DNA of 53,562 nt, counting the filler, from Stramenopiles sp. TOSAG23-6 (lineage: Eukaryota), in assembly GCA_900128565.1 (NCBI GenBank). It is 3 parts of 3 records of this genome, joined end to end, with 100 filler letters (N's around TTAATTAATTAA, not from the genome) between each part and the next. Parts side by side here need not be neighbours in the genome. Positions count along the whole stretch, not along the records: positions 1 to 17,830 come from LT636073.1; 2 more parts are not named here. The stretch is one strand, 5' to 3'. Positions 1 to 53,562 of the stretch are shown here, in pieces. A model generated the notes under the pieces. It worked only from the letters and a program-made list of their open reading frames with translations, ran no database searches and had not been told where the DNA came from. Each line of letters opens with the position of its first letter. Positions within the stretch are counted from its first letter, which is position 1. The position numbers were made by a program, and so were the translations under genes.

Positions 1-54
1 GTACGAAATTTTGTACCTAACGATTTTTTTTTGAAATATTTTTCCAAAATACAT

Positions 55-609
55 GCCAGCCGTAAATCAACTAGAGTTACATCCAAGATTTTCGTCTCCT
101 TCACTTCGCCAATTCGCAAAAGAGAATGGTATTGTTCTTACTGGTTACGGTTCAGGAAATAGTGTTCGTATTGAGCGTAATCCAGTAGTACAAACTATTG
201 CAAATCGTTTGGATGTTCGTTTCCATGATAAATTTCAACTTTTTTTTTCGTACGAAATTTTGTACCTAACAAAAAAACTTTTGAAATATTTTTCCAAAAT
301 ACATGTTTCTCCAATTTCGGTTATTTTAAAATGGACTCTGAATGTACGTTTTCAATTTCAACATGTATTTTTTTTTCATAGTAAATTTTGTACCTAACGA
401 TTTTTTATACACCAAAAAAAAATACAATACATAAAGGAGTTTCGGTTATTCCCAGAACAGCGAATCAAATGCATATGACTGAAAATTTAAAAGCAGCTGA
501 CGTGAACTTGACTAAAGATGATATTGCAAATATTGATTCAATGAATGAAGCTTGGCCATATTATTGGTGTCCACTGCCATTAACGCTTGATTCAAAGTCA
601 GATCTTTGA
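55..609 (+). CDS. Aldo-keto reductase, 3' part (exons 55-214, 305-343, 433-609)
   Basis: Spliced product reads PAVNQLELHP...IANRLDVSPISVILKWTLNKGVSVIPRT...ENLKAADVNLTKDDIANIDSMN, typical AKR C-terminal motifs. 5' end lies outside the window. Confidence 0.88.
215..304 (+). other. Non-canonical GT-AT intron
   Basis: gat|GTTCGTTT...TACGAAATTTTGTACCTAAC...AAAATACAT|gtt. There is no AG between the branch motif and the next intron. Confidence 0.82.
344..432 (+). other. Non-canonical GT-AT intron
   Basis: aat|GTACGTTTT...TTGTACCTAAC...AATACAT|aaa gga restores KWTLNKGVSVIP. Confidence 0.82.
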
Positions 610-846
610 ATGTATTTTTTTTTCATACCAAATTTTGTACCGAATGCTGCAATTCTAGTTACTGGGTTTAAAAAAAAAAGTAATATTTTAGTTTAAGAGA
701 AAAAGGCGATATACCTAGGTATATGTATAATGTATTGTACATACATTTATTTTTCTACCATTTATATATGAAATTTTAATATTTTCATTGTAAAATTCGT
801 TTGTCAAATTTCTTCAAGATTATTCCGAGAGTTTATTGAATCTGTA

Positions 847-3115
847 CTAAATTTCGTACCAATTTACAAATTTCTGACGTATTACTTTTCTCGAGAAATC
901 CTGGACAGAATCTTTTATAGCAAGCCATAAGACAGAACATTTCTCCTCTTTATTATTTTGTATGAGAGTTTTAGTGGTGTCACACTTGGCGGAACAAAAC
1001 TGTAAAGATAATCCACCACATATATCTACAAATTTATTAAATTTTCGTGTATTTACCCCAGCACTATTTTTCCAAATTGATGTTCTTAGTGAACTCTCTA
1101 AATCTTTTGATGTTTCTATATCGTTTGGATCTCTTGATGATTCATTTTTACTCTTTGAAAGATATTGCAAAAGTTTTTTTCTTCCTATTTTTTCAATGAT
1201 GTACTCAATGATCCAAGGACAACAGTGAAAGTCAATACCCGCAGCCTGAATATCGTGTATTGTGAAAAAATATTTTTTTTTTTTTGAATTTAAAAAAATG
1301 AATACGTACAAAATTTTCACAGTAAAAAAAAATGAAATTCAATTTTGAAAACGTATGCATTTTCGTAATCGTTTGTGTCTAATCGCCTCAAATGAGAGAT
1401 TCATTTGAGGAATATCACTATTTGAAAATAACGTGTTGATTATAATTTTCTCAAACGTTTGGAAATGGCTACTTTTATCACTTGTCGTCGTATTGAACAT
1501 CAATTGATGAAATCTATTTTTCCATGTATATTAGGAAAATATTTCAAAAAAAAAAATGAAAACTTGTTAGGTACAAAATTTCATACAAACAAAAATGAAA
1601 TTGAAGCTCCAACGTACATAGTAAAGCATTTTTTCGTAACAAATCCACATCAAATTCTGTGCCACCAAAACTGGCTCTCAAAAGCAAAGCTCGAATAATT
1701 GAAACTCCCGAAGAGTGCATTGGTTGTTTTTCGTGGTTTGTATTGTGAATAAATATTTGTTTTAGTTTAAAAAAAATCGTTAGATGTAAACTTTTTTTAC
1801 AAAAAAAATAACAATTCATAATGAAAACAAACAAAACGAAACAAAAACAATTGTTTAGATACAAAAAATCTTATGAAAAAAATATAAATTTGAAATTCAT
1901 GATGAAAACGTATGGGTAACTCGATATTGACCTGTAGAGTTTATTTTATGATTTTTATCATTTTTCAAAGAAATATTTATAAAATTATGTGAAATTTCCT
2001 GGTACTGACACGATGATATAGCATACACATATAAAAGAACAGTATGTAGGAAGAAAAAATATTTAAAATTCAAATATTTTGTTAGGTCAAATTTTGGCAC
2101 AAAAAAATAAAATATTTAAAATTCAAGTTTGACAACTTTCATCATACAGTTCAATTCCAGGACAAAAATCTTTACTCATAGCAGCCATTAACCATGATAT
2201 TTGTGGTAGTATTGGGTGTATTGAAATTGTATCCTCCACGCCTATGTATTTTGGAGAAATATTCCAAAAAAAAAAAAATGTTAGGTACAAAATTTCGTAC
2301 GAAAAAAAATTGAAAAAAAAAATTTAAACATACATGACAATCAAACGACGCAAAAGCTCCAAAAATGGATTTGTTTGAATATTTATGGAATTTTTATCTG
2401 TTTGAATGTTTATTGAACTTTTGTCATTTTTCTTCTGTCGTTTTCGTTCTTTTGATATTTCCTTATTCATCTTATATCGACGCATCAATTCAGACGCACA
2501 AGCTACAGCTTTATAAGATTCCCTCCGCCTGACAGTTTTTTGTATTATGCTTTTCAACATTGATATCGTAAGTCCACAGGTTGCACCTGTTGTTGTCATG
2601 GAAATAGGCTGCAAACTTTCCAAGTTCGTTGACAACACCATGAGAACCGACCCTTTTACTGATTTATCTATATTTTTGGCAGGAGAAAACATCCACTCTG
2701 AAGGATCAAAATGTTTATCCTTTATCTCAAAACTTGTAGTCCATCCTCCATTATGTTGAATCTTTGCTCGGGCGTTTGTTTTAGCCGCCTTACGCGAGTT
2801 AAAGTCTTCCCAATGGCACGTAAAATGTGTTCCATTAGTATGAATGATATTTGGATTGTATTCTAGGTGAAAATGCATCCCTCGTCCCTCAGCAGAACGC
2901 ATTAATTGATCAAAAGCATTTCCACCCATATTTCGTATAGGTTGCTTCGGATCATCAATCGGTAAAGGTCTCTTTTTATTTGATTGCATCATTCGTGAAA
3001 AGATATTTTCATTCGTGCGTTTCCCTTGAGCGACTTTCTTTGTATCACACATTTCGCATCGGGGCATACTCGAGTAATTTAGAAAAGTGCACAAAGGACA
3101 AGGCCATTGTGACAT
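847..3115 (-). CDS. Conserved uncharacterised protein with N-terminal RanBP2-type zinc finger (exons 3115-2334, 2243-2148, ~2047-1914, 1737-1618, 1523-1357, 1254-847)
   Basis: WPCPLCTFLN...CEMC zinc finger. Spliced blocks KSIIQKTVRR, LLRRLIVIGVED...HP...WLMAAMSK, LRASFGG, W.NRF, GIDFHC and IW...GVN.RK. One junction near 2047 is uncertain. Confidence 0.7.
1255..1356 (-). other. AT-AC member of the intron family
   Basis: tgc|ATACGTTTT...CACAATACAC|gat restores RKCDIQAAGIDFHC. The 5' end is ATACGT, not the U12 consensus ATATCC. Confidence 0.7.
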
Positions 3116-3522
3116 CGATTTTTGGATTGATTCGCAGCTGGAGCTAGTACAGAGTTCAAAGAAACACTGGGTGGTTGGCTGACGTATAAGGTCTAAGGTG
3201 TTTCGAATTGATATCAATATCAGTTTGACCAGTTTGACCGATGAAATCGCAATGAAATCGAAATCGGCGTTTTTCCAAAAGTCACCAATAACCCCTAACC
3301 CTAGCCAATTTTTTTTTGAATCGGTCAAAAATCCTTCGATATCAGATCGATCGACCTCATCTTCTGTCTTCTTCGATTCTATGGGCTCCTCCTATATATC
3401 GCTAAAATAGACTTCGTTCTTACTGAAAGGCATTTATATTGTGGATAATTATCATTTAAGATTATTCGACAATTTATAAATCCGTGCGTTGCTACTGAAG
3501 GGAGACTTTCAAACAAATTTAC

Positions 3523-6244
3523 ATGAAGCTTGAGCTCTCAGTAGACACTGTAAAAGGTGAACATGACACCCGGTCATCAGTGCTCTCCTATCTTAGCAGC
3601 AAGTCGGCTCGGATAAAATGCGACGAGTTATTTTTAACGTGGTGCTCTGAAAAGAGAACAACTGATCTTATTCTTGGTTTTATAGATACAATTGCCAATG
3701 GAGACACTATAGATGGTAATGAGCTCTCTCCAAGACTATTCTTTCCATCAAAGTCTCCTCATGGTGAAGCCAATGGTTCTCCAACTCTATCCCCACCACC
3801 GCTTTCACCCTCAGCAATACGTACAAATAACCGTAAGCAACTTTCCTCTCAGAATAAAGCTGATCATGATAATAATATCGCTGCTTTATCTATGCTATCT
3901 GTTTCTTCTTCTTCCACAGTTCTTCGAGCAGCGGGATCTACTGATATTGCACCGAAAGTATTATCGCCGACTCGTATTGACCATACTAAAGAAACGAAAG
4001 GAAATGGAATGACAAAAAGTGTTGAAGGACAACACGGTGAAAAGAAAAATGATTCAGTAAATGAGCAAACAATTTTAAGAAAGGCCGAAGAAGCGTTGAG
4101 TGTTGATAGTGATGAAGTTGAGCACAAAGAAAATAACATAATAAACCCTGACGGAACCTCAAAAGAAAATAACATAATAAACCCTGACGGAACCTCAAAA
4201 ACTCTCGTGGAGGTTCAACAACCCCGAAAGAAAATTCGACATGTCTCATCAATGGATGAAATACCGCAGTTCTATCATAAAAAAAAGGATATACCTCCTT
4301 CTTCTAGAGTCGTAACTGCTCATATAGAAGCCATTAAAAATGCCTTTTCATCATTTCCAGAAACTCAGAAAGGAATTTTGTTAGCTGATTTCGTGTGCAT
4401 AGCCAAAACACTCTGGGGTATTCCAACATTTATGTGTCCTCTTTTATTCCGACAGATTATATTACACAAAGACAAAGAAGCAGATATAGAATCATTGGAA
4501 AAAAGGCGAAATCAAGTCACGACAAATTCATCAGATGAACAAGTACGTTTTCATCATGAATTTAATTTTTTTTTCATACGAAATTTTGTACCTAAACAAA
4601 AAAGATTTTTTTTTTGAGTTTTTATTCAATACGTTTTCATCATATTTTTTTTACCTTTTTTTTGTAAAAATCATTTCGTACCTAACAAAAAAAATATTTT
4701 TGAAATATGTTTTCGCAATAAATGGTGCAAATGTAGGGCCCCGTGTGACAGTGACTGATGCAATTCACTTTTATCACCATGGCCTTAAACCATTTTCTCA
4801 TACAGAAAGAAGTATGTTTTATTTTTTTTCAATTTCGAATTTATTTTCGTACGAAATTTTGTACCTAACAAATTCTAGTTTTTTTTTTTTTAAATATTTT
4901 TCCAAAATACAATGTTTCGATTACTGAAAAGACCAGGTGTGGATTTTCTTACTTTTGATGATTTCATGCCTATGCTAGAAGAACTTCTAGCATATCATGT
5001 ATGTTTCCATCATTGATTTTATTTTTTTTGGTAGAAAATTTTGTACCTAACGATTTTTTACTGAATAAAAACAAAATATATATTTTTCACAATACACCCA
5101 GGTCTCGAATTTTTAGAATCAACGCCTGAATTCCAAGAAAAGTATGCGCGTACCGTAATCACTAGGATATACTACGTGTGCAATCGCGCTCAGAATGTTT
5201 GTTTTATCATTGATTTTTTTTTTTTACGATGAAAATTGAAAGATTTCGTATCTAATGATTTTCACATTGTAGAAAATATTTTTTAACTACACATGGTCAT
5301 TTAACTTTGAGTGAACTTGAACGCTCAAATCTTGTTGAAATGATGACTGTTGTTGACGAAGAAGAGGACATTAATAAGGTGGAACAGTTTTTTTCATATG
5401 AACATTTTTATGTTGTTTATTGTAAGTTTTGGGAACTTGATACTGATCATGATTTTTTATTGACACCAGCTGATCTTCTTAGATATGGAAATCATTGTTT
5501 AACAAGAGGAATTGTCGATCGTATTTTTGAGAAAGCAATTCGGCCCTTGAATCCAGGTCCCCCTGATAAAATGACGTATGAAAATTTCTGTTATTTTTTT
5601 CTTTCTGAGATAGACAAGTCAAATCCAATATCTATACGATATTGGTTTCCATTAGTTAATGTAAATTGTGATGGTGTGTTCGTTTTCGTCATTCATTTCA
5701 AATTTATTTATTTTTAATACAAAATTTTGTACCTAACGATTTTTGTAAACCCAAAAAAACATTTTTTTCATAATACATAATTAGGCATCGAGAAATGAGA
5801 GAAATGTATGCTGAGCAGCTTCAAAGAATGGAATCATTAGGGCATGAAGTTGTGCCATTTGAGGATGTTATGTGTCAAATGTGTGATTTACTACAACCTG
5901 CAATTCCAGGAGAATTTCGTGTTCGTGATTTTGTACATTGGGATAAGATTGAAAATTCAGGTGTATTTTTTGACATGTTATTTAATCTAAGTGAATTTCT
6001 TGCGTATGAGCAAAGAGATGTTTTTGCACAAAGACAAATGAAACAAAATGAACCAAATACAACACCATGGGAAAGGTATGCTAGAGACGAATATGCGAGA
6101 TTAGCGATGGAAGAAGAGATGCGTGAGATGGGTGTTTCTGATGAAGACAATGAATTCAATGAATTTGAGCATACCGATGAACTTGATAACTGGGGGACTG
6201 GTAGTCGTATCATGTATGATGGTGAAATGGAAGATGAAAAGTAA
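3523..6244 (+). CDS. PPP2R3: Protein phosphatase 2A regulatory subunit B'' (PR72/PR130 family; exons 3523-4542, 4724-4811, 4913-4998, 5098-5196, 5295-5677, 5779-6244)
   Basis: [50 protein letters not shown]-hands and [17 protein letters not shown] are hallmark B'' motifs. Confidence 0.93.
4126..4200 (+). repeat. 36-bp in-frame tandem duplication ([12 protein letters not shown] x2)
   Basis: aaagaaaataacataataaaccctgacggaacctca occurs twice. Confidence 0.9.
4812..4912 (+). other. Non-canonical GT-AA intron
   Basis: aga a|GTATGT...AATACAA|tg ttt restores [11 protein letters not shown]. Confidence 0.78.
4999..5097 (+). other. Non-canonical GT-AC intron
   Basis: cat|GTATGT...AATACAC|cca ggt restores the conserved HPGLEFL. 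The CAG 4 nt downstream would cause a frameshift. Confidence 0.85.
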
Positions 6245-6411
6245 AAACAATGTAGACAAAAGATCTATACAAAGTGTATAAATTTAAATATATCACATGA
6301 GATATAAAAAATATTCTTCGATTTCGCATTTGTTTATAATTAATTTCTATTTTGTAATAGGTAAATTGAAAACAACACTAGTTGTAAAAAGAGTTATATT
6401 TTTTAATACAA

Positions 6412-9400
6412 CTACATTTTGAGCTCAATATGTGCTCCACGCTGAATCAATTTCATTGCGGCACTGTAACTAATAGCAACAGGCACACCACTGAGTTTCA
6501 TAGCATTGTATAAATCCGGTGCATCCTCTATTTTCGCATGCATAGCCATATTTATCAAGCAGTCATACGTTGCAGTATTGGGACTTAAATCGTCATTGAC
6601 AAGAGCTTTGAAAACTGACATTGCCCTTTTCCATTGTGATGCGCGACTGCATGCGTCGAGTACAGAGTTATAAGTAGTTAGTTTAGGCTGAATTTGAAAC
6701 CTCTTCATCTCCCACAATATTCCGACAGCTGCATCAGCCGCGGGAGGTTTTGCATATTTACAAGTAGAAATTATCGCAGTAAATGTGGAGAGATCTGGTC
6801 GAATATCCCTTTGAACCATAACATTGAAAACGTACATAGACTCCCGCCATTTACCCGTTTTACATAAGTCGCGTAGTATTCTCAAATATAGGCTTCTAGC
6901 TTTCACCATGTCACTAATGGTTACATGTGCAGTAGGAGTTATTTTTCTAACTACTTCAAGATTTGCAATAAAATCTGGAGCTATCGTGTATCTTTCTGTT
7001 TCTTCCTTTTCTATATTAGTAACTCTACGATTTTGCAATACTCCATTAGATTTCTTTCGTTTCGATGCTAATTGTATAGCATCATCAATATCCCCTCGTT
7101 CATCCACAAATTTGGCACGTAATTCAGCAAGTTGAGAATTTTTAAGTTTCTCTAAACTTGCCAAGTCATTTTTTAAACGAGTTACTCGAGAATGTTGAGC
7201 CCGGAAAGCTGGATTTCTTTTAGTTTCATATACGATGCATCGTTTCCTTAATTCTTGTAGCTCGGTGTGNATTTCTTTTCCAGATGCAAATGGTAGTTGT
7301 AAGCCTAATGCACGCATAGCAAATGCTATATGAGAAGCATTGCTCTTATCTTGAAGTAACTCCCCAACATGTTCAACGCATTTAGTTACCCGTTGTCTCC
7401 AACCAGAGCTTTCAGCTAGGGAAAGATGTTCTGTAATACTCAGAGCTTGATTGATGAACCGTAAATATTCAGCCTCTAGCTCGACCAACTTTTCCTTTGC
7501 CTGGCATAGCTGTACACGTCTCTGTGATACAATCATATTACTGTTGGTCTTTATACGATCATAATTGAGTTGTGTGCTCTCAGTTATTTGATGGCGCTTA
7601 ATAGATAAATCTGCTAATTCCGTTTTTGCCTCAGATGCTGCAATAACTTTTGCAATTCTTTCTTCCATTATCTTTTCGCGTTCTTGTATTACACGAGATG
7701 TTTCAGTTTCTGCCTGGCGAATTTGGTTTTTCACTGCTACGAGGAGCTCATGCGAAGAATGCTTACCATCACGCATCCATCTCTGTTTACATTTCATGGC
7801 TGCGTGACGTAGTTTCATTGAGCGCTGTTTTGGACTAAGATTAGTATGTTTTTTTGGAACATCTATATTTATGTCCTCGACATCTTCAATATTTTCTATT
7901 TTCTTTTGAGAGCCATGTTTCTTCTGTGTATCAGAAAATAATCTTCCAAACATCATGGCATATATTCGTAAGATTCCATCTGCCCTCGCCCCAAATCCAG
8001 GTGATGGCTTGCAAAGACCTTTTCGAATATTCATGTGTTGAAGTTTAACCCATTTAGCCATTTGTGCAACATATTCCCTTGGAAGAACATACGGCTCATC
8101 GTGTCCAGGTGGTGAAGCATCGAGACTAGCACCACGTAAAAGAAGGAGCTCTGTTGCATCAGCACATCCCCACTTAATACACTTGAGAAGTAATCTACTT
8201 CCATCAACAATTGTATCTGGGTCTAAACCCCGAGAAAGTAACGTGGCAACAAATGCAGCGACAGGGAATTGCCATGCTCGACGAAATAATCGATCCAACC
8301 AACACACACTACCCATCGCTGCCATCACAGGAGCAGAAAACAAATACTCAGGCCGAGGTGCATGGTGTGTCATTTTTATTATTTTTCGTACTAAAGCTGG
8401 TTTCCAAAGGTTCCAACTAGCTTTTGTTCCACCAATGGTAGTGTTTGCTGCAGCGCGTCGAAGTGCGTGTTGCTTTGGATCTAACTGAGACCATGNTTTG
8501 TTCTTTTGAGCAAATCCATCCGTTGAGCAAAGTAGGCGACGAATTATCATCACAGAGGAATAGCAATTCTTCCAATTGTCCGTGATATTAGGTGCAAGGA
8601 ACGCTGGGTCTGTACCAGTGGACATAGCAAGTCTACAAAACCATGGCCTCCATTGACTTTTTTGCACCTCGCTAGACATAATTTTAGCACGCCATACTTT
8701 ACATACAAGTTCTGCCCGACAAAGCTCTCGGGGGTTCAACACAAGACCTCGGCTTAATGCGCATTGCAAGGCCACCACTGCACCTTGCATACTCTGAAAA
8801 CGTTGTCTTGCTTTATAGTAATGCCAAGCTGCTTGGGCTTTTCGTACCGAACGAAGATATCTTGCTCGCCGACGGTGTATAAACCCTCTCACAAAACGTT
8901 GTAAATTACGCATCGGGCGCATAGTTCCTTTTACCTTTTTAACTAAATCCCAATGGAATAAAACCATCGATGTACATCGTCGTGCCACTTGTTTTCTTTC
9001 TCTTAATATTTGCATTCTATCGGCCCTTATAAGCGCTTCAATTCTATCAGACTTTAATGCTTTATGTCTCTGACGTTCCATAGTTTCCCACCTCTGTCGC
9101 ATGAACATTCTTTTATCTGCATCAAGATCTTTCATTTGGCGCATTGTGCGTTTAATAGTTTCCAGGCGTGTTACGGATATACCATGCGTCACACCCGCTT
9201 CAGAATCAGAATCTGAAGCATCTGATAGAGGATCGCCATCGACAACACTATTTACACGCATTATTTGGGTTGATTCGATTCTGTCTTTATCCCCGTGATA
9301 TGTTGAACAATGAACAAAAAGTTTCTCTGATTCGACGAGACCTCTCATAATTTTTAATTCTTTACTTGGTTTATTTTCTTCTCTGAGCTTTCTCTTTTTT

Positions 9401-12400
9401 ATTCTCCTTTTCATTTTTGCCTTTCTTTGTTTTTTATTCAACCTCCGTACATTATTCGATGCAACGGCCGATAAATTTTCGTCGGTGTTACTATTTTCAC
9501 TCTCTGATGAACTATTACTGCTCTCTTCTTCTTCACTTTTTGACTCATTTTGAACTAAACCCTCTTCTTCGGAACTAGATTCATCATTATTATTATCTGT
9601 GTCAGTCGCTTCGCTAAAATCTTCATTTTCCAAATTTCCATTTTGGTCCTTCTGCTTAGCTTTGAGGAATTTTCGCAATTGTTTACGGCGTATTTTATAA
9701 GGAATAGCATTGCCGCTTTTGTCTCGAACCCACGGTTTGCCTCTACCTTCTGTTTCCCATAACATTGTTCCATGATTTGCAGGCGCAATACCTGTGGGAA
9801 ATAATCTATTGCTTCGTTTTATCACCACGGAAATTTCAGTATTACATGGAATAAATAAACCCCTTTTAGCTACCAATATCAATGTGTGTGTGTTTCTATA
9901 CCATGCTGAACTAAAATCTTTGCCATGAGACCCGGATATTGAACATGGTATAATATCATATGCAGATGAAAGACATGGAAGCGTGAATACAATTCGATTA
10001 GAAGATTGAATGGAAATATTTGATTTCCACTGTATCGTAACTTCTGAAATTTGTTTCGCAAAGTTAGGCTTGAAAAAAACGCTTGAGTCATAAAAAATAG
10101 CTTTTGAAGATTCAACCATCTTATGTTCGAAAGCAGAAGTTGCCAGTGCAAGAAGCATTTTGTGTCGCTCCAATGATGTCTTTGCTGTTTCAATTACATA
10201 TGACTCAATTAATAGTTCGTTTTGTAGCGCTTCTTCCCGAGCAATATTTGTTGCAATTACCCTCTCCGCAGCTTCCTTTTCTTCACGGAGCAATTGTTCT
10301 TGCATACTCTCTCGTTTGTAACCTTCAGTATTCTCTGAGCCAATTTCCCGAATACCTTTAGCTACATTTTTCAAGTACCAGTCGGTAAATTCCTCAAATG
10401 TAACACTTCCATCACCACTTGAATCCATCTCAGAAAACGCATCATTCAGTTTTTTATTTGATAGAAAACCCGTTAGTTTCTCGCCAAGCGCTTCCGCAAG
10501 TTTACGCACTTCGTTTTTGTCTAATTCGCCAGATTTGTCTTCATCAAGTTGGTCAAATAGTTTACGAATCTTGCCCATCATCAGTTTTTTTCTTTCAATC
10601 GCACTGTAAGCTTGCCCATTTTCATTGAAGAAGCCTATTCCGAGAGGATCAAGTCTCTTCTCCTTTTCCCTTATGTTTTTTTGTTCATTCAAAATTCGTT
10701 TCTTTTCCTTCTTTTCAGCTTGGATTGCCTTTTGCGATTTACGTTTTTCATCGCGTGCGCGTTCTTTAAGAGTCTTTTTCAATTCTTTTTCTGTGAGTGT
10801 CTTATCATTTTCATCGCGTTTGCGAAGTTCTTCTTTTTTCAGTTCTTCACACCGAATTGTATCAGCTTCAGAAAAAGCAATTTCTTTCATTACCGTTCGC
10901 TGACGATTCTCTTCCCTTTCCATCGAAACTCTTTCTCGTTTCATATTTAAACATTCCTTGTGTTGTTTTTCTTTTTCGCATAAATCTATTCTCATCAAAG
11001 CTACCCAATGACGCTCTTCTTCATCAGAGTCACTAGAAAGACTAGGATCATCCTCTGATGAAGCTAGAGCCTCTTCCCATATTGGAAGTGGACCTCGGTT
11101 TCTTCTCCGAATAGCACGACGTCGTCTTCGAACTATTTGAGCAACGCGCTTACGCTCTTTCTCAACAAGCGCTATAGCATCATCATCTTTGCTCTGGATT
11201 TCTGCCTCACGGCGTAGCTTGAAAAAATATTTCTTGTATTTTTCTTGGGCATCAATAAAAGCAGGTACGAGACATTCAAGCTCACTATGACGCGCACACA
11301 ACTCACTTTCTATTTTTGCTTGTTCGATTGGTGTGATGTCACCACTTCGCATTGGACCAAACGGACGAAGGGCAGCAATACGCGCATCTAAGTAATTTTG
11401 AAGAGTACATTTATCCTTATTGCAAGCTTCCATAGCAGCTTTTGATTTATCCATATTTTCCCGGAGTCTCTTAATCTGAGCATTGTTCCATATATTATCG
11501 AAACTTCTTAGTTTATCTATTAGGTGCTCTGAATTTGAAACATTTTTCTCGCAAAGCTCCTTTTGCTTTTTCAGAGTATCTAAATCTTCTTTCCATTTCT
11601 CTTCCTGTAGAACTTTGAGGTCAGTACGTATATCATCCATGTCATCAAAACAGTCTTCCATTTTTCGTGTTGCATCAGTCAAATCATTATATAATGATAC
11701 CAAAACTTCAGAAACATCCGTGCGTTCTTCTACAACAAATTCATCATAATCTGGTAATGGTTTGAACTCACCTGATGCGTCAGCTTCTTCTTTCCATTGG
11801 GATTGAAATAATTTATCTGCCTTATCTCTTTTTATTTGTGAATTTTTGTGCTTCAGCATAGCATCTTTAAGCATTGAGTTTAGACTACGTATATCTTCAT
11901 CACGCAATGCTGAAATTTTCTTTTTATATTCAACTTCTGCTAGAACTCCTTCGAATCGTCTCTTTGTGGCAAGCCTTGATGCTTTAATGAGTAGTACTCC
12001 TTCAGAATCCGAGCTTGGGTTGGATTCAGATGGTATTGAAATTGGTTGGTCGTATTCTATAACATCCTTTGTTTCTATAAATGGATTAAAATTATACACT
12101 CTCCAATAATCTGTTTCTGCTGATGGACTCGATGCGGTCAAAGCCAAAGCAGCAGCTCGCTTCATTGTATCTTCTTTTGTCCATTTTTTTCCAACCAATG
12201 CAGAAATTATACCGCGTGAATCCTTTTCTTTGTTTCTTTGTTCCAGAATGATTTCTTTATGAAAATTTTCTGCCCATTCGACACTAGAAGTTGTAACCTG
12301 TTTTTTACGATTGACTCGCGCAATAGATGCTGCTTCCAGCTTTTGATTCAAATTAAGTCGCTCTATTTCCAATGGTTTTATAAGGACATCAATGCCGAGA

Positions 12401-15400
12401 ACTTCTTTTTCAGCGACTTTAAGTGCATTTATTGCATTTTTCATTATTCTTTCTTTATCAAGATCTTCTTCGTCAACCATATTAGCTTTTTCCATTTTCT
12501 TTTGAGCTTTACTTAATAATATATCCACATTATTTTTACTTTCATTGAATGGGATGAGCTCTACATTAATTTGCTTGATTCTATCCTCATATAGTGAACA
12601 TTGTAAATAATCTGACTTTTGCATCAAAATTTCTATTACTCGCTTTCGTCTCTCCAATTCAGCACTTGCAGCATATACGCAGAGACTCATGGCGCGTAGA
12701 GCACAAGGAACGACACGTTTCTCATTAAGGTTTGTTTCTTTTGCGAAAAATCTCGACTTCAGTATTTCTATATTATCTGATACATTGTTTTCAAAGGCAG
12801 TAGCTAAATTTGGTGCATCCCCAGGAAGCATCCATTCCTTAACATTCCCTTCGGGGATATTATTTAGCAATGTTTTGTACATTTCTTTGTCTTCTTGTTC
12901 AGCTCGCCTTGCAATATTTGTTAAATCCTTTAAAACTTTAAATGCCTCTTCCGCATTTTTCTTTAATGTCTCAATTCCTTTACGTTCTTTTTTCAGCATA
13001 CTTGCTCGGATCCGTTTGGATTTTGCGAACTTGGTTAAACGTCGAATTATAATATGAGATGATTGATCTTTTTCTGTCTTATCTTTCTTACTTTCGTGGA
13101 AGGCTTGATTCACTTTCTTGGTAGCTTCTACAGCTGCAATTTTCCCACNCTTTTCCATCTCTAAGGCCACAGACGCTTTGGATTCCAGCTGTAAATATGT
13201 CTCACGCGCATCTCGCAAATTTTGTTTTGACAAAATCATGTGTTTGTAAGATTTTTTCCATTTATCATGCGATTTTAATAGAATATCCCATTTTGTTTTA
13301 TGGTTTTTGTGTAACAAGAATCGTTTTCTTTTAGCCTCGATATCGAGTTTGTCATTTTGTACTGAGGCTTCTACATCACTACGAGCGTACATTTCTGATA
13401 TGTACCTCATTGCAAGCATAAAACCCGGTGATTGAGTTAATCCACTTCCTGTAAACTCGCTCAATGAAATTAACTGTACACTCCTAATTTCTTTATTGAA
13501 CGTATCGGTTTTTCCCACACCGTTTTCTTCGAGATCATTTGTTATATGGTTTAAATGCATCGCCGGTTCCACATTATATTGAGAAAGCTCTACTAAACAT
13601 TTAGAACTCTCGCGTACCACATGGTCAAATTGTTTCTGTAACTCTATTTTTTCCTCCATTGTAATTTTCGCCTTTGCTTTAGATTTTCCAAGTGAGCGAC
13701 GCGCAATCATCTTTTTATGTTTTGCAATTTTTGCTTCGCTTTCTGCTTTCCCCAATTCGATTATATGCGCANCCTTCAATGCTTTAGTAGGAATGTAGTC
13801 GATTGCTACTAACGCTGCAAATATTTTATCCTTTTCACTACTTAGACGCGATACTTTCTTTAGGTCTAATTCTTGATTTTCAATCAATATTTGTAATTCT
13901 GAGAGTAATCCTTTAGCTGTCTCTGCTCGTTGTTCTGCTTCAAATCCCAATCTTGCGACGTTTTGAGCATCTTGAAAATGTAATAATCTTTGTTCTGCTT
14001 CTGATTTTGATTTTTCCATTCTTGAAATTTCGTTGTTCGTAAGTTTTAGTAATTCAGTATAATTCTCTAATTTCTTTAATCGTTTTTGTTCCGTCTCTTC
14101 AGAAATAAGTTCGTTTAAGATAAGACGTTTTTTCACCAATTTGTCTCTAATTTGTCTCATATTATTTTGTGAATGAATTAATTGTTCTGTTGCCTCTTTA
14201 TTTGCCGCCTCAGCTTTGGCCAGTGCTTTTCTGTGAGTACTTAAGAGAGACATCTTTATATTAACCCTTTTGAATACTTTAGAAAAACGTTGGAAATTCA
14301 ATTTTGATTTGGACCTTTCTCTATTTCCACTTTTTACTGGAGTTTTAGCTTCATCTGTGACAATTTCAGATGTGTCTATTTGANCAACCGAGTTTTCGTT
14401 TTCGAGTTCTTCTTCATCGGCGTCTACATTTTTCTCTTTCGCAACATCAACATTTGCAGCTGCATCCATTACATTATTCGATGTCTCTAAAACCTTTTCT
14501 TTGGCAAACTTATATACAATTTCTGCATCTTCAAAAGCTCGCTGCAATTTTTTTACAATTGGGCGAAGTTTCGACAACCTCAAAGTTCGTTTTGAAATAT
14601 CAAAAGGCAAGAAGTCATCCTTAATACGGTTGTAAGCCGTAACTAGCTTTTCATATAATTGTGTTTTTTTCAAGTTTCCAAGATTATCATCATTGTTTCC
14701 ATTGACTTCAATTGTTTTGTTATTCCTTTCTACATCATTGTCACTGTTATCCGAATCAGAACTTGAATCATCCTCAGAGCCATCAGCAGCACTGTTAATC
14801 GCACCCATTGTACCATGTATATCATTGTATGCTTTTTCGGCCGCAGACTTTGCAACTTCAACTTTTGATTTGAGTATATCTAAATCATAATCAATTTGTT
14901 GAAGATTGCGAAGTTCTTTTAATTTTAGCTTGACATCGTTTTGATCTTGAAGTAATTTAATTACATCTAGCTTATGATTCCGAATCTCTAGTTCACGAGA
15001 TGCAATTTCCGCAGNCGTGAGCATTTCTTTAGAAATTTGGTCCACAAGGTGTCCTTCTTTCATTTGAGTNGTTTCTTCAATATCTTCTTGTTCAAACTGT
15101 AAATCATCTAACTTTTTTTCCAATGCATTAATTTTTTCTGATTCCAAGATTCTTATACGTCGCCGAGGAATATTGTAAAACTCGCGATCGTTGTTGAGCC
15201 GCACTGTAAATTTAGTTTGGACAATATTTGGGTTTAATGAATCAACGCCTACGATAAATCCANGACGCCAATCGCGGCGATATATTTCATTGTCGCTCTC
15301 TGGACGTTTATATGTTTCGGCATAAGGATCATCNTCAGTGATTACTAATGTTTTAGACAATAATTTCAGTTCTGCAATACTACTACCATCTTTTGTTTTT

Positions 15401-17805: not shown

Positions 17806-17830
17806 TTCAACCTTTTGGACAGATTCATTT

Positions 17831-20122: not shown

Positions 20123-23100
20123 ATGAGCACAACTCGTTGTCGTATTGGTTTTGAATGTTTTTCAATAGAAGCACTAAAGCGTACGTTTTCATCTAATTTA
20201 TTTTTTTACTAAGAAAATTTTGTACCTAACGATTTCTTTTACTAAAAAGAAGTATTTTTCACAATACATATTTACGCAAAGATAAAGAATTCTTTTTTCT
20301 TACACCTGCAGCACAAAAAAAAGTCGTTTTGGAAGAATGGAATAAACTCAGTGAGATCGATAGGGACATGATCTGTTCAAAAGCCGAAATTTCTCAAACA
20401 AAAGAATCAAATATTGTCACAGATGACAATGAGTCAACGAAACAGTCACTTAAAAAATTGTCTATGAAGGGAAAGAAAATTAAATGTAAAAATACTTTAT
20501 CTAAAGGCAAAACAACCACAAACACAAAAAGTAAATATAAGAAAAGAAAAGGTAGCAGTAATAAAAAAGTGGTGAAAACTGCAAATACCTCTTTAGTGGA
20601 TCCTCAAATTATTCAAGAAGAAACAAAAGATAAAAACAAACAAAGTAATGTTTGTAAAATTACACATGATTCATCTAAATCTATAAATTCTTCAGTCAAT
20701 GTTATTGATTTAATTGATGTTGACGAAGATTGTATAATGATTGATGAAAGTAAAGGAAAAGTGGATATAGTTGTTATCGATGTCAAAACACCAAAAACAT
20801 TAAAAAAATCAAATAATGTTGCAAATAATATTACAAATAATATTACAAATAGAGAAAATAGTGGAAATGGTTCAATTTCTATCGACAAAAATATCTCTCA
20901 AAATGATAAAGATTTGATTGAAGAAAACAAAATTAAATCTATTCCTATGATGTTTCGTACCAAATCACAAAAAAATCAACTTAATATACTACAAAGTCGT
21001 CGTTTAGAGCGGGAAAAATATGAAAAATTAAGAAAATTTGATCAAGCACTGAATCAAAATAAAACTTTAAATCCGTTTTTTGATAGAGAAAAGCGACGTT
21101 TAGCAGCAAAAAAATGTCAGAGATCAAATTCTTTTGGCAGTGAAAAATGTACGTTTTTATCATGGATTTAAATTTTTTTTTTTTTTGGTAGAAAATTCTG
21201 TACCTAATGAATTGTTTTTGTGACATATTTTTCCACAATAAATATATCCCTCCTCAATTTATTCACAAACATTGGAATTTAGTTGAATTTCCGTCCCAAA
21301 TGTTGGGATTAAAAAATCATGTGTATGGTGATAATAAAACTATCTGTGATAAGGATGATGAAACTGTCGTGATTTTCCCCATCAATTATATATGTTTTCA
21401 TGATGAATTTCAAATTTATCTTTTTTCATACGAAATTTTGTACCTAACAAAAAACAATTTGAAATATTTTTTCACAATACATTCTTCTGTCGCGAAGAGT
21501 ATGTGTGATTGGATTGATAAGAAACCAGAGAAGAATAATATAGATGAAGTAATTGATATAAACACTCAAGAAAATCTGGATAGCAGTAGTGGCATTTTTT
21601 TTTCAACTGCTCTTTTGAATGGGGAAACAAAAAAATATTTAGGAAAAAAAGTAAATGTTGTAGATATAACTCTTGATGAAAATAATTGTGAAAATAGTAA
21701 AGTTTTACATGATAATTGTCACACCGTAATGTCTCGAGCATTACCTGCTGCCGTTTCGACATTTATTAAATCGAATAAAGTTCAGAATGCAATCCTTGAT
21801 ATTACTAGAGGTAGAGAATTTAATTCAAAATGTAGTACTAATAAAGAGGATAAAGAACAAGATGATGATGATGATGATGATGATATGAAGGAACTGGATG
21901 CAGAATATGCAACAACGTTGTCAATGTTTACAATGGCTGCAATGCGACGTTTTTCAATGGGTGACGCAAATGTGTGGCATTCAGATTGGAGTCATAAATA
22001 TCGTCCTAGGTGTACGTTTTCATCATGAATGTTTTTACCTAAATTGTTTTTTACTAGAAAATTTCATACCTAACGATTTTTTTGTATGGAAAAAAATGTA
22101 TATATTTTTTTATAATACATGTACGTTTCATATGAATTTCTAATTTAATTTTTTTTCGTACGAAATTTCGTACCTAACGATTTTTTTTTAAATATTTTTT
22201 TATAATACATGTGTCGGAGACATTATAGGAAAACATAATCGAAATGAGGCTGAATCTTTACTTACATGGTTGTACGTTTTCATCATTTCAATTTCGAATG
22301 TATTTGTTTTGTACCAAATTTTGTACCTAACATTTGTTGTACACCAAAAACCAAATATATCTTTTTACACTAATTGAGGGAATGGAAACAACTTCATTTG
22401 GGTCAACGTGGTAGACAAAATGTATCAAATAAAAGTAGTTATGGCTCTTATGGTATAAATTTATGGTACGGATTTGATGATGGTGATAGTAGTGACGAAT
22501 CAGAATTAAGTAATGGTTGTTTACTCACTGGTCCTACTGGTTGTGGCAAGACTTCATTAGTATATGCATGTGCAGAGATGCTTGGAATTAGAGTTATTGA
22601 AGTTCATGCTGGTTGTAAAAGATCTCGCGCGGATATATGTATGTTTTCCAGTATGAATTTCAAATTTATTTTTGTGTAGTAAAAAATTCTGTACCAAACT
22701 TTTTTTTTACTCAAAAAAAAAAAAAAAAAAATTCACAATATAGTAAGACTCTTTGGCGAAGCAACGCAATCGCAACGTTTGACTTTAGATTCAAAAAATA
22801 AGAATAAAAAAAGTAAACAAAAAACTACATGGCATGTACGTTTTTAAAATTGAATTTTGTCTAATTTTGTTTCATGCGAAATTTTGTACCTAACAAAAAG
22901 AATTGTATAATTTTGTTTTCCACAATACATGTTGCTCGAGATGACGATACACCGAAAAAGATTGCAAAAAGATTGGACGTAAGTGTCAAAGACATTCTAC
23001 TACTAAATAATGGGAAGTCTGGAACAGAAAAATTGTACATGTCTGCTCGTTTATACAAGGGAACGAATGTAAAAGTTCCTGTTGAAAAGCAAAAAAAGAA

Positions 23101-35702: not shown

Positions 35703-35802
35703 NNNNNNNNNNNNNNNNNNNNNNNNNNNNNNNNNNNNNNNNNNNNTTAATTAATTAANNNNNNNNNNNNNNNNNNNNNNNNNNNNNNNNNNNNNNNNNN
35801 NN
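35703..35802. other. Assembly gap with TTAATTAATTAA linker (35747-35758)
   Basis: Same spacer as at 17875. Confidence 0.9.
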
Positions 35803-35901
35803 TGGAAAAATATTTCAAAAAAAATCTAAAAAAAATTGTTAGGTACAAAATTTCGTATGAAAAAAAATGTAGACAAAAAATTAAAAAAAAATAAAACATA
35901 T

Positions 35902-37977: not shown

Positions 37978-38621
37978 TTTTATGTTTTACGTTTGTCTGT
38001 AATGTTTGTCAATATATTTAGAATGAATATATATGAGAAGAAGCTCGTGCAAGATATCCGCTTAGAATTGCAGCTCGAGAATTGTATATTCTAAAACGTT
38101 GGGGAAACAAAATAAAACAAATATGGAAAGTATTCCATACTCATGAATGCCACTAATGAAAGATGGAAACATGAATATAATGTGAAACACTAGATACATT
38201 CAAAACACATGGGACAAATTACTTTAACTTACCGTTATTGCTTCGATAAAAAACAGAGGAAATCTTTTTTATGACGAGAAATAACAGAAATAGGTAGTAC
38301 CGTAGGACCTACTGTATATCTTGTTTTTGAGCGTTTTATCACCAAAAATGAATCGATATAATACTAGTACCGGGTAACCAATCAAACTCGAGTTGAAATA
38401 TCGAAAATGCATCGAAAAAAATACAATTCGAAGAAGAAGCGCGATTTGTCGACGTCGACAGTCCACTCACACACACAGTCATATATTTTTTACATTTGCT
38501 ACACATTAACGAAGTTCACTACAGCAATACACCTTGTTGAATTTTGACATCACTATTACATATCAAAGTACTTAATAAAATAGTTGTATTGTATATAATA
38601 TTTTAATCCTTTTGATCAAAA

Positions 38622-39854
38622 ATGGCTTTCCGACTAAGCGCTGATCTCATTGAAAATTCAAGAACATTTTACAACTGTATTGGTGAACGTGAGTTAGACC
38701 TTAGAGGTCAAAAAATATTAGTAATTGAGAATATGGGTATTATAGATGACCAATTTTGTGCTATTGACTTTTGTGAGAATGATATCCAGAAACTTGGTAA
38801 TTTTCCAAGGATGAAACGTTTGCGGTCTCTCTACATATCGAATAATAACATTTCGAAAATTGACTTGACTATCGGAGACTCCCTTCTAGGGTTGGAATCA
38901 CTTCAACTTTCAAATAATAAGCTTGCAAACCTTGGAGACTTGGCTGCACTTGCATCTTTACGTAAATTACGCGAATTGAATCTCTTGAATAATCCAGTTG
39001 TGCGGCGGCCTGACTACAGGTTATTTGTGGTGCACTGCATTCCCCAGGTCACTCTATTGGATTTTCGTAAAGTGACAAGAAAGGAACGCCTTGCTGCGGC
39101 TGCTTTATTTTCTACAGAGGAAGGTGAAAAAATATTAGACGTTGTATCTTCTCCAAAAGAAAAGGATAAAAATACGTTTACTCCGATGAGCTTCAAAAAT
39201 GGTCCAACTCCTCAACAGCTACAAGCCTTGCAAGATGCTATTCAAAATGCAAAGACTCCTGCAGAAGTGGATAGATTAGAGCAAATGGTACGCCTGGGTG
39301 AATTTCCATCTCCCGAAAAAGACCATACTACAAATTCGGTCAATGGAGGAAATAAAAATACTGATAATACTGATAATACTGAAACATCCTCAACGACTCA
39401 GGCAGAGGGTTCAACAGGCAACAAACGGAAATTATCGGCTGAATCGAACGCAGAAGATCAAGTACTTGTGAAAAAAACGAAGACGTCACCTAAAAAGAGG
39501 TCTCCTCGTCGAAGTCCAAAGACGTCACCTAAAAAGAGTTCACCTCGTCGGAGTGCACGGAGTAGTCCAAAAAAAGCAAAATCTTCACCAAAAAAGACAT
39601 TATCAAAAGCAAGCTCTCCTCGTCGGAGTCCACGGAGTAGTCCAAAAAAAACGAATTCCTCACCCAAACAGAGTCTACGCAGTAGTCCAAGGAAAACGAA
39701 GTCATCAGCAAATGTTTCGGTCTCAGCGCGGAAGAAGGAACTTATGAAATTGAAGTCAAAAGAGTTAAAAGATCTTTGTCTTGAAGCGAATTTAGACAAT
39801 GTTGGAACGAAAGCAGTTTTGTGTAAGCGTATTATTCAATACGAAAGGTCATGA
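38622..39854 (+). CDS. SNRPA1: U2 snRNP A' with an SP/basic-rich tail and C-terminal SAP-like domain
   Basis: MAFRLSADLI...ERELDLRGQKI..IENMG...DQF..IDF..NDI LRR and LRRcap YRLFVV...LDFRKV..KER. Tail has SPRRSP repeats and LKSKELKDLC...GTKAVLCKRI. Confidence 0.9.
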   Translation: MAFRLSADLIENSRTFYNCIGERELDLRGQKILVIENMGIIDDQFCAIDFCENDIQKLGNFPRMKRLRSLYISNNNISKIDLTIGDSLLGLESLQLSNNKLANLGDLAALASLRKLRELNLLNNPVVRRPDYRLFVVHCIPQVTLLDFRKVTRKERLAAAALFSTEEGEKILDVVSSPKEKDKNTFTPMSFKNGPTPQQLQALQDAIQNAKTPAEVDRLEQMVRLGEFPSPEKDHTTNSVNGGNKNTDNTDNTETSSTTQAEGSTGNKRKLSAESNAEDQVLVKKTKTSPKKRSPRRSPKTSPKKSSPRRSARSSPKKAKSSPKKTLSKASSPRRSPRSSPKKTNSSPKQSLRSSPRKTKSSANVSVSARKKELMKLKSKELKDLCLEANLDNVGTKAVLCKRIIQYERS

Positions 39855-48600: not shown

Positions 48601-49912
48601 ATAATAATAATAATAATAATAATGATAATAATGATGATAATAATGATGATAATGCTAGCTCGAATGGAATGTCATCAAATGAGACTAACACTTGGCCTGG
48701 TTGGGTACGTTTGTATCATTTTATTTTCTTTTTTTTTTTTTTGTTTTTTTTGAACATTTCATACCAAACAGTTTTTTTTTTTAATTTTGATTTTGTTAAA
48801 CAATATTATTTTTTTATAAAAAATTTGTACTAAAGACGAATAAAAGTTTTTTTTTGATATATTTTACACATATTATGTTTTATGTAAAGAGAATGACACA
48901 GTTCAAGATATTGCAGATAAGTATAATATGGATGTTCATCAACTAATATCTATGAATAAATGTAATTATAACGGTTTACGACCAAATGCACGTAGGTTTA
49001 TTTTTTTTGGTTTTCATACGAAATTTTGTACCTAAAGATTTTTTTTTTTTTTTTTGTTCGAATTTTTTTTTTAACAAAAAAACAAAAAAACAAAAAAACA
49101 AAAAAAAAGTAACATTTTATACCTAACAAAAAAAAAAAAAAATATTTTTTACAATGTATAACTAAAAGAAGGGACTTGGTTAGAGATTGGTTGTACTGAT
49201 TCAGATGAAGATATGACAGAGGTAGAGTCTTTACCCACAACAACTACCATACCTAGCCCTAACCCTAATGATTTGAATACAAAAAATACAAAACATACAA
49301 AAAATACAAAAAATACAAAAAATACAAAACATACAAAACATACAAAACATACAAAAAATACAAAAAATACAAAACATACAAAAAATACAAAACATACAAC
49401 AATGGATACCAAAGTGGAAAACCCCAATAATAATATAAACGCAGGATCTCGTGTAAACACTATACTTCGACAAGTGAAAAACAGATGTACTTTTTTTTTT
49501 TTTTTTTTTTTTTTCGAATTTCGAATTTAAATTTTTTTTCATACGAAATTTTGTACTTAACGAGAATTAATTTCAAAAAAATATTTTTTCACAATACAGT
49601 TAATAAAAAGTCCCAACCTGAAAATTTCAATAGCTTTTGTCAATATCTCTACCAGTTAGCTAGAAAAGAAATTTCAACTGAAATGTATTTTTTTATTTTT
49701 TCAATGTAGAAATTTACAAATTTAAAAAAAAAAAAAAATATATATATATTTTCATACGAATTTTTGTACCTAATATATTGTACATTTTTTTAAAAAATAT
49801 ATATATATCACAATAAATGGTTTTGACAGGATTTCGTCATATTTTACGGGATGATTTAGATTTATTACATGCAGTCAATGTTTTTATACAAGATCACGTC
49901 AATGGGTTGTAA
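45660..49912 (+). CDS. Chromatin regulator BAH - ELM2 - SANT - RanBP2 zinc finger - LysM-like - PAH (exons 45660-46072, 46174-47185, 47351-47453, 47578-47699, 47890-48070, 48307-48704, 48874-48991, 49160-49486, 49600-49684, 49819-49912)
   Basis: BAH (PYIAQI...WFFR...FTCRFLYD), PRIGTSYQVQIP (ELM2), WSIE...HGNDDFKNIA...HYWW (SANT), WTCDVCTFVN...CAIC, ENDTVQDIADKY (LysM-like) and VKNRF...DLLHAVNVFI (PAH). Confidence 0.75.
49276..49400 (+). repeat. Coding 9-bp tandem repeat (NTK/HTK)n
   Basis: aatacaaaa and catacaaaa units inside an exon. Confidence 0.9.
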
Positions 49913-50543
49913 ACCCTAACCCTAATCAATGGGTTGTAAACCCTAACCCTAACTCTTTCTTTAAATATGTATCAATATTGATTGTTTTACAATAAAACCC
50001 TCTCCCTCTATTGTTTGTATATCAAAATATATATTATATATGGATGTATTATTAGGGTTAGGGTTTCGATGTCGTACAAAATAAAATCAAATGTAAAATT
50101 TTTGATTTTTCTGACAAAAAAAATGGAGTCAACACCAATTTGGAATTTTGGATGTAGTTTGGAAAAATATTTCAAAAAAAAAATTCTAAAAATTTTGTTA
50201 GGTACAAAATTTCGTATGAAAAATAAATTCGATTTTTTTGTAAAAGAGTCACGACGACAAAGTCGACAAAGTAATAAGTAAAAATAATAATAAAAAAACT
50301 ATTTTTATATGAAACATAAAATTAACACGAAATCAGTATTTCTGTTGACATATTTTTTTTTTAAACCCTACACACATTAGCATTAAAAATCTAAAAAAAT
50401 CTAAAAAACCTTAAAAACCTTAAAAATCAAAAATATTGAATTAAAAAAAATGTGTCTGTTTCATTTGAAAATCAAATTAGATTTTTTGTTTTTATTAAAA
50501 TTTTGTACCTAACGATTTTTTTTTTGAAATATATTGACTCAAG

Positions 50544-52310: not shown

Positions 52311-52347
<37 letters not shown>

Positions 52348-53449
52348 TTTTTTTTTAAAAATTTTTTTCCCAAAAAATTTTAAATTTTTTTTTTTTGAGG
52401 TAAAAAATTTCCAAGAAATTTTCAAAAAAAAAAAAAAAAAAAAAAAACGTACATTCTTTTCTAAATTTTGAATCAGCTTCAATTAGAGTTCGCATTTTTG
52501 AACGTGCACCTCGATCATTTTTTGATAACTCTGTGATACTTGACGATTGACCTAACAGTTTCGAAATTTTATTAATTTTTGGAATATGATTAAATTGGTT
52601 GTAATATTTTTCTTTAATTGAATTTCTCACTGCATTGAATTTTTTAGCATCGGATAAATAGTGTGAAAAAATATTTTTTTTTTTTTTTTTTTTTTTCGGG
52701 AAAAAAAAAAAAAATCTTTAGGAAAAAAATTTTGTTTAAAAAAAAAAAAAATTCATTTTTTTTTNCANAAAAAAAAAAAAAAAAAAAAAAAAAAAACATA
52801 CATTTTTTGTCGTTCAAGAAATTGTTTGGTTCCGTGTCCTTTATATGCTTTTTTATCCTTGACTATTTTTTTTGACATGCTATTGATACGTGGTTGAAAT
52901 GGACAGGCTTGTTCCACACGAATAAGATGTTCTTTCTGTCGTAACATTTTGCGATGTTTATGTATTACAAAAAAATATTTTCAATTTTTTTTTTTTTTGT
53001 TAGGTACAACATTTCGTATGAAAATTTAAAAAAAAAATTAAATGTATAAATACAACATGCATGCTGTACAGCATCTGACAGCAGTCTCTGAGTTGTATCT
53101 TTTGAGCGATAATTGAGTCGATCATGTTGTTTAGCTAATTGTTTACTACGTTTCCCAATGGTAGGTACGAATGTTAAATCTTCATTCGATTGATAGGTAT
53201 ATATATTGTGAAAAAATATTTTTTTTTTTTTGATTTTTGAAAAAAAAAAAAAATTGTTAGGTACGAAATTTCGTATGAAAAAAAAATTTAGATAAAAAAT
53301 TTTAAATGCAATTGAAACATATCCAATCGTAACCGTTGTAATCTTTGATTTTTTTCTCTTTGCAAATGATGGATTCGGTGTTCAATTGGGATATATTCTG
53401 TACCTCTGTCATGATATTTTTGAGATACGATTGCTTTTGAAGTTGGATT
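50544..53449 (-). CDS. Intron-rich protein with repeated (C)TFxP motifs, 5' end outside the window
   Basis: Spliced exons give LTFVPTI, CPFQPRIN, CTFTPDI, SFKPDV, CTFQP, CTFHPQT and TMPEPFKLS. About 10 family introns and one N-gap. Confidence 0.65.
52960..53060 (-). other. GC-AT member of the intron family
   Basis: cat|GCATGTT...GTACCTAAC...GTAATACAT|aaa joins the exons in frame. Confidence 0.65.
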
Positions 53450-53470
53450 ATAAAGTGTGAACAAATATTT

Positions 53471-53501
<31 letters not shown>

Positions 53502-53505
53502 GGGA

Positions 53506-53559
<54 letters not shown>

Positions 53560-53562
53560 ATA

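Follow-up and report, generated by a model that had tools for sequence, protein, structure and literature searches.

The first base of U2-type introns, G+1, is their most invariant position, as it is used in recognition by U1 and U6 and again in the pair between the intron ends at exon ligation. This G+1/G-1 pair normally fixes both ends of the intron (PMC11585973). In Fritillaria borealis and F. pellucida, according to the available portion of the report (PMC13326754), a major spliceosome without a minor one removes introns most of which end in AT or AC. Introns starting with A, YAY at the intron end and a share of about 5–6% of GT..AG introns are further likenesses to the genome described here, where 14 of 228 introns have GT..AG termini. 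In Fritillaria, the main classes start with AG and the U1 5′ sequence is kept, the change residing in m6A and in a duplicated U2AF, whereas here 91% of the introns (208/228) start with GT, one family is dominant and the U1 gene itself is rewritten. A U1 whose 5′ end has changed to complement an atypical donor consensus is described for Entamoeba and Mastigamoeba, and the same source places a Physarum U1 variant with these cases of co-evolution (10.1101/2022.06.08.495308). In Entamoeba and Mastigamoeba one or two bases are involved, against three here, one of which faces an exon-side target duplication, and the accessible part of that source makes no mention of GT or AG loss, nor of a donor provided by a transposon. 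An expansion of U12-type introns is also described for Physarum (10.1101/2020.10.12.336362).

Introners, including those of Micromonas and Aureococcus, resemble the elements described here: similar short introns occur by the thousand, direct repeats are present at their junctions, and their termini share a short inverted similarity. Here, however, the duplication supplies a non-AG acceptor; in Amoebophrya, unlike here, the intron ends vary widely and a U1 was not found, as far as the parts at hand of these reports go (PMC12130899, PMC7789003). U12-type introns likewise have a long, information-rich donor that pairs fully with an snRNA, and loose termini (AT-AC, AT-AA, AT-AT and GT-AT), but their donor is RTATCCTT instead of the RTAYGTTT found here, where the matching snRNAs are U1, U2 and U6 (PMC1557818). 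In the yeast prp18-null strain, CAU and UAU 3′ ends are used after U-rich tracts and a G+1/U-1 pair was proposed, which fits the -CAT and -TAT ends found here; unlike the present case this is a laboratory mutant with minor site usage, and in the portion available of that report donors with A+1 play no part (PMC10711555). We found no report of a marine protist that combines GT-AT introners, non-G donors and a rewritten U1, in a search that reached mostly literature outside subscription.

An introner family with GT..AT termini

The window, i.e. the whole stretch of 53,562 nt that was analysed, is AT-rich eukaryotic DNA comprising several contigs linked through N spacers, with positions 1–17830 corresponding to contig C123. 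The assembly (21.1 Mb, 6,236 contigs) is fragmented, with scattered N's and duplicate contigs. Together with 80 ten-kb stretches, 60 of them taken blind and 20 chosen for known core hits, the window forms a survey set of 852 kb, about 4% of the assembly. One stretch of the assembly (L088, contig C2095) has a visibly higher GC content and no obvious family copies, and the assembly may include foreign DNA.

A repeat about 100 nt long interrupts the genes of the window. It is composed of GTAYGTTTT, then a core with TACCTAAC at its end, a T-rich stretch, and AATAC followed by two letters. The exact 16-nt core has 6,431 matches genome-wide, against a single control hit. From 501 cores with full flanks we obtained 263 distinct ones with a 3′-end call, of which 228 have one donor with at most one mismatch to GTAYGTTT, 32 have none and 3 are ambiguous. 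The last two letters of the intron repeat the last two of the upstream exon in 163/226 copies, and ends other than AT match the two upstream letters in 26/52 cases, against 2.8 expected and a permutation maximum of 10, which identifies these repeats as a 2-nt target-site duplication. With many similar copies at unrelated genic sites and a target-site duplication, the family is an introner. Its copies lie in the sense of open frames in 170/228 cases and antisense in 8/228, a bias that is expected of RNA splicing signals.

Among the 228 introns the first two letters are GT in 208, AT in 11, GC in 4, TT in 2, GG in 2 and GA in 1, and the last two are AT in 174, AG in 16, TT in 14, GT in 11, AA in 4, AC in 4 and CT in 3, with 2 unreadable; with so few GT..AG pairs, the family departs from the GT/GC..AG rule for U2-type introns. 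A crude scan of the 852 kb for ordinary GTAAG..AG introns returned one candidate (L044, (-) strand, 103 nt), and nearly every intron of the genome seems to belong to the introner family. The element pattern had 0 matches in viral contigs.

The core contains a near-perfect palindrome directly upstream of the branch motif, and short imperfect inverted repeats form the two ends of the element; both features may be pointers to the mechanism of transposition. At 22012–22120 and 22121–22210 ((+) strand) two family copies are directly adjacent, without an intervening exon, and the second has inserted at the end of the first, an arrangement that would need recursive or nested splicing. More doubled or partly duplicated copies are found at 4550–4710 (+) and at 47000–53560, along with intron-dense contigs that have long T runs. 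An unbroken open frame of about 3,800 aa at 6415–17830 (-), with EF-hand and PPR matches, carries no family copy.

RNA evidence was sought in four seawater metatranscriptome runs, which hold 6–12% of the words of window positions 1–7200; depth and long-range joints were left out because much of the depth derives from other copies of the element. One poly(A) contig skips exactly 94 nt, corresponding to the GT..AT intron at 1524..1617 ((-) strand) in the gene at 850..3391. The fit of two others starts at position 5293, where the duplicated AT of the GT..AT intron at 5197..5294 ((+) strand) begins; this intron is located in a PP2A B″ gene. We rejected these starts as proof of the register, given that the intron ends at 5294 and its AT duplication is intact, and retain them as evidence of splicing only. 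These two GT..AT members are removed precisely from mRNA. The initial annotation had proposed RNA junctions as a check of splicing; they support the GT..AT members, whereas no RNA record of the four runs crosses any non-G donor, which is the chief gap in the evidence.

The placement of the cut has to be considered at this point. If the true cut lay two bases upstream at both ends (NN..AC), these would be AT-AC-type introns of minor-spliceosome origin. In the 163/226 copies with an intact duplication the two registers give the same mRNA, where this is AT, and U12 introns with AT-AA, AT-AT and GT-AT ends are known (PMC1557818, Table 2). Against this, the 48 informative copies with unequal duplications present 5 junction stops under NN..AC and 0 under GT..NN, and C8 of U1 falls on the G of GTAYGT. 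Furthermore, the poly(A) contig spanning 1524..1617 fits from 1737 and its first letter misfits at 1738, which disagrees with NN..AC and agrees, by this one letter, with the predicted AA end of the intron at 1738..1913. Where A+1 is combined with an intact AT, the first base would be non-G in the shifted register too. As the initial annotation had held, these are not U12 ATATCC sites: ATATCC is not enriched (463 seen, 477 expected), and U12 and U6atac had no match in the organism's own, incomplete genome. We regard the NN..AC register as very improbable and keep GT..NN. A register test based on synonymous changes gave 8/29 versus 3/10 (p = 1). A slipped register, in which GT is lost and the cut falls after AT, was also rejected, the +2-shifted donor being open in 0/13 cases.

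Donors without G at the first position

The initial annotation had singled out six hexamers as donors with a relaxed 5′ G: ATACGT at 1356 and 1913, ATATGT at 21390, 35901 and 53322, and GCATGT at 53060. All six were confirmed in place, five on the (-) strand and the one at 21390 on the (+) strand, and each lies upstream of an exact or degenerate family core, in the family register, as a family donor. Exact excision restores an open frame in five of these copies; the sixth, at 35803..35901 (-), starts with ATATGT and has lost its 3′ end in an N gap at 35802.

Two of the copies belong to one gene (850..3391, (-) strand), which codes for a conserved protein with an N-terminal RanBP-type zinc ribbon (its match to Pfam PF00641 is below the cut-off) and with homologs P0001–P0003. 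The five family introns of this gene form the series GT..AT, GA..AT, AT..AA, GT..AT and AT..AC, and the spliced model, with 661 aa from the start of the open frame, aligns along its length to two database proteins. The GT..AT intron at 2244..2333 (-) restores the homology to P0001 and P0002. The next, at 2044..2140 (-), is a degenerate introner with inferred GA..AT ends, across whose junction the alignment to P0001 and P0002 is gap-free; a contig from an RNA library falls inside it, so that the intron may be retained, unless the contig is DNA. The AT..AA intron at 1738..1913 (-; 176 nt) has an internal partial duplication with two branch-like motifs, and its retention leads to a stop at 435 aa. 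A rival in-frame GT donor at 1931 gives homology scores of 191 and 187 bits, versus 186 and 183 for 1913, and a duplex with the organism's own U1 of −0.4 kcal/mol, versus −5.4 for 1913 (and likewise −5.4 for 1356). The AT..AC intron at 1255..1356 (-; 102 nt), with a degenerate branch motif at about 1298–1305, leads to a stop at 531 aa if retained, and when it is excised the L-x-x-x-D-I spacing ahead of the DFHC motif is the same as in P0002. There is no in-frame GT donor for its acceptor and the sole GC..AG alternative loses 13 aa; as the alternatives lie within 0 to 5 bits of it in homology score, homology is weak evidence at this junction.

Among the other copies, the AT..AT intron at 21390..21482 (+), in an RFC1/ATAD5-like AAA gene, has an intact target duplication and 80 open codons on each side, against 20 or fewer for shifted donors. 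The GC..AT intron at 52960..53060 (-) leaves the frame open through both flanking exons, and an in-frame GC..AG end 24 nt further on is possible. The AT..AT intron at 53201..53322 (-) is in frame with the family-register end of the preceding intron; 2 nt upstream of its donor lies a GG donor that is open in a different frame.

In the survey set, 13/228 donors (5.7%, CI 3.1–9.6) start with a base other than G, 11 with A and 2 with T. This is far more common than in ordinary U2 systems, in which U2-type AT-AC introns of five model species number 24/608,562 (PMC1557818, Table 1). Each of the three rough subfamilies contains such starts (5, 4 and 4), which have thus arisen repeatedly. A single mismatch to the donor is found at +1 in 13 introns, +2 in 7, +3 in 11, +4 in 6, +5 in 11, +6 in 3, +7 in 2 and +8 in 5, with none in 170. 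The change rate at +1 equals that at +5 (13 versus 11, p = 0.83) and that of an internal G of the element (p = 0.53). The relaxation of the 5′ G therefore stands, but it is not confined to this base, since +3 and +5 vary about as readily as +1. The conservation of AYGT at +3 to +6 holds for the named copies, but is in part an artefact of how they were selected.

Errors in the assembly or consensus could in principle produce the non-G bases, in view of the fragmentation, scattered N's and duplicate contigs, but the flanking coding frames are clean, the changes are biased from G to A (11/13), and genome-wide a strict non-T+ATAYGTTTT pattern has 43 matches, of which about three quarters are family copies as judged by eye, against 1 control hit. 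We consider such errors the least probable of the explanations discussed.

Shuffled sequences gave 10.5 chance matches with a +1 mismatch per 263 regions, which scales to about 4 for the 93 elements without a perfect donor, compared with the 13 seen. Since about 4 of the 13 non-G donors could be explained by chance motif matches, the weight of the evidence lies on the frame test. At least 30 open codons on both sides are found for 11/13 non-G donors and for 154/170 perfect GT donors, whereas a donor moved by 1–2 nt leaves such a frame open in only 0 to 5 of 13. Of the 13, one belongs to a tandem internal copy and fails, and another is situated in a gap. The copies at 1356 and 1913 were added by hand to some tests, raising the non-G set from 13 to 15; with at least 50 codons on both sides, the frame is open in 13/15 of this extended set, 133/171 GT donors and 0–2/15 shifted donors.

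Additional junctions come from two genes outside the window. In a UvrD-family helicase gene (L054), the exon upstream of an AT..AT intron ends at the position of UvrD 224 (PcrA 227) and the next starts at UvrD 225 (PcrA 228), and in-frame GT donors to the same acceptor would remove a motif or add 4 aa. A second non-G donor in this gene, that of a TT..AT intron, has 80 open codons on each side. In a coronin gene (L016), excision of an AT..AT intron gives a gap-free alignment to the 69%-identical P0024, with a conserved Cys kept, and there is no GT/GC..AG alternative within 30 nt. The AT duplication is intact in both AT..AT introns, which therefore start with a non-G base in every register that gives the same mRNA. 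A search for a spliced coronin from the same species across the junction, with 87 candidates, gave 1 hit, the 69% relative, and a metagenome scan for a same-species counterpart gave 1 distant locus only (29% identity).

On the basis of the frames and homology at these donors, we propose that the non-G copies are spliced there by a retuned U2 spliceosome, with a probability of roughly 70%. They could instead be recent, mildly harmful mutants or minority alleles, poorly or cryptically spliced, with the organism getting by on leaky splicing or on another allele. Such a view would agree with the missing RNA across non-G donors, with their weaker U1 duplex, and with the similar rates of change at +1 and at other positions, which would be expected of new mutations not under selection. 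Moreover, an in-frame GT/GC..AG alternative exists within 30 nt for 9/16 non-GT copies, although those that differ in the donor all pair less well with U1, and in most of them residues are lost or gained. However, frames and motifs are intact in the helicase, the coronin and the window gene, and the helicase has two non-G donors. In addition, imperfect donors sit more often in drifted duplications (26/60 versus 39/170, p = 0.004), which suggests that they are old and persistent. We judge the mutant or minority-allele explanation unlikely, and splicing at the non-G donors is the reading pursued below.

A rewritten U1 and a proposed mechanism

The 5′ end of U1, whose gene sits between those of U2 and U4, reads AAACGUACAUG, compared with AUACUUACCUG in the Rfam consensus. 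The differences are U2 to A, U5 to G and C9 to A, while C8, which faces +1, is unchanged. With these changes the U1 5′ end complements the family donor exactly over exon −3 to intron +8, the target-site AT included. Two U1 copies were found, identical at the 5′ end, so that this is the sole U1 form found. For 170 perfect donors the mean computed duplex energy is −10.2 kcal/mol with the organism's own U1, against −2.1 with consensus U1, and for the 13 non-G donors it is −4.4 against +0.05, so that the pairing of non-G donors with U1 is less than half as strong as that of perfect donors. As the 2 kb of the U1 contig that were read contain no family copy, the tie of this contig to the organism rests on the complementarity; U1 folding (z −1.9) is uninformative alone. 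Deviations from the Rfam consensus extend to the U1 loops for U1-70K and U1A binding (L062:349–508; 54 bits, with a cut-off of 69.5).

The initial annotation, in which the changed U1 did not figure, had seen the free first base as fitting a loss of the G+1/G-1 pair. That this loss suffices, the U1 change being incidental, would agree with this pair being the accepted cause of end constraint (PMC11585973) and with its absence from most introns, as only 16/215 G-starting introns end in G. Nonetheless, +2, +3 and +5 vary as much as +1, and changes at +2 (GA, GG, GC) lie outside the reach of a G–G pair. The three U1 differences all match the element. Coupling between +1 and -1, which had been suggested as a test, is weak: A+1 occurs with C-1 in 2/12 versus 3/216 introns (p = 0.023) when the hand-added 1356 and 1913 are included, and in 1/10 versus 3/214 (p = 0.17) without them, and most A-starting introns end in T. 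Drift away from AT gave AG in 8/11 intron ends versus 0/4 exon ends (p = 0.026), so that G-1 may still be favoured. Both the A+1/C-1 preference and the drift to AG are hints from small numbers that the end pair is still felt. The pair is mostly absent, as supposed, but its loss is quite improbable as the whole explanation; the pair is probably weakened and not gone. Given the G+1/U-1 pair proposed in the available part of the prp18 study (PMC10711555), it may also have been replaced rather than lost.

We propose the following mechanism by which a retuned U2 spliceosome would use the non-G donors. A short non-autonomous mobile element, the introner, would give rise to these U2-type spliceosomal introns. 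It would insert with a 2-nt duplication, usually of AT, so that each intron consists of the element plus one copy of the duplication, in the form GTAYGTTTT..branch..AATAC-NN. U1 would have been rewritten at three positions into the complement of the family donor, exon-side AT included. In the first step, the cut would be fixed by an 11-base U1 duplex and by pairing of U6 ACAGAGA at +4..+6, instead of by the letters GT, and with such long pairing a single mismatch would be tolerated anywhere, at +1 or +2 included. Since about 93% of the introns have a last base other than G, such ends must already be usable in the second step, which would largely strip G+1 of its second-step role; with the G+1/G-1 pair absent in that fraction, an A at +1 would cost little more. 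Changes from G to A at +1 would then accumulate at about the rate of other element positions, independently in several subfamilies. Pairing of this U1 in the cell, a relaxed proofreading at the second step and a change of U1 in response to the element are what we infer from these observations, and the matching U1 end suggests that the splicing machinery adapted to its invading element. More broadly, we tentatively envisage, at somewhat under even odds, that a mobile element replaced nearly all introns, U1 was rewritten to its end plus duplication, the proofreading of AG (perhaps Prp18 and U2AF35) was abandoned, neither terminal dinucleotide is required any longer, and a U2 machine converged on a U12-like logic.

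A natural genome in which G+1 is as free as its neighbours would allow the contribution of each donor position to be measured once AG is gone, with thousands of near-identical introns as built-in controls. The matching U1 would clearly exemplify a core snRNA that has followed a transposon or is being exploited by one, and bears on how introns spread and on why GT-AG is otherwise fixed. In practical terms, gene finders that require GT..AG will mis-model this lineage.

Other components of the splicing machinery

The U2-type character of these introns is indicated by a donor complementary to U1 and to U6 ACAGAGA, a CTAAC-type branch, and the presence of U1, U2, U4, U5, U6 and Prp8. The U2 branch helix and U5 loop 1 are canonical. 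U6 (L061:953–1056, (-) strand) is found on a contig that bears family copies and has a canonical ACAGAGA box, directly preceded by GGAUAAUAU, compared with GGAACGAU in the consensus; its GAUAA could pair with a UUAUC downstream of some family donors.

The stretch of Prp8 aligned to human 1506–1535, which we take to be the alpha-finger with yeast Q1594, differs at two residues only, so that this active-site stretch is essentially unchanged and points to no protein cause. The alpha-finger of Prp8 holds yeast Q1594 (PMC12707134). Prp18 had no match in this fragmented, intron-rich assembly, and the same search was also blank in control genomes. U2AF35, searched in the fragmented assembly with a pattern based on a motif, was absent from 2 pattern hits and from 11 contigs with 16 zf-CCCH matches. 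Neither of these two blanks speaks for a real absence of the gene.

The genes of U5, U2, U1 and U4 lie head to tail at L062:9–645 (contig C1146), with spacers of 2, 23 and 5 nt, and the same cluster is found on contig C6122. The arrangement suggests a single polycistronic transcript, and our literature search returned no clear parallel for a cluster of this kind. In the window, an intronless gene at 38616–39851 (+) codes for the U2 snRNP protein A′ with a C-terminal SAP domain, a fusion common to two EukProt hits.
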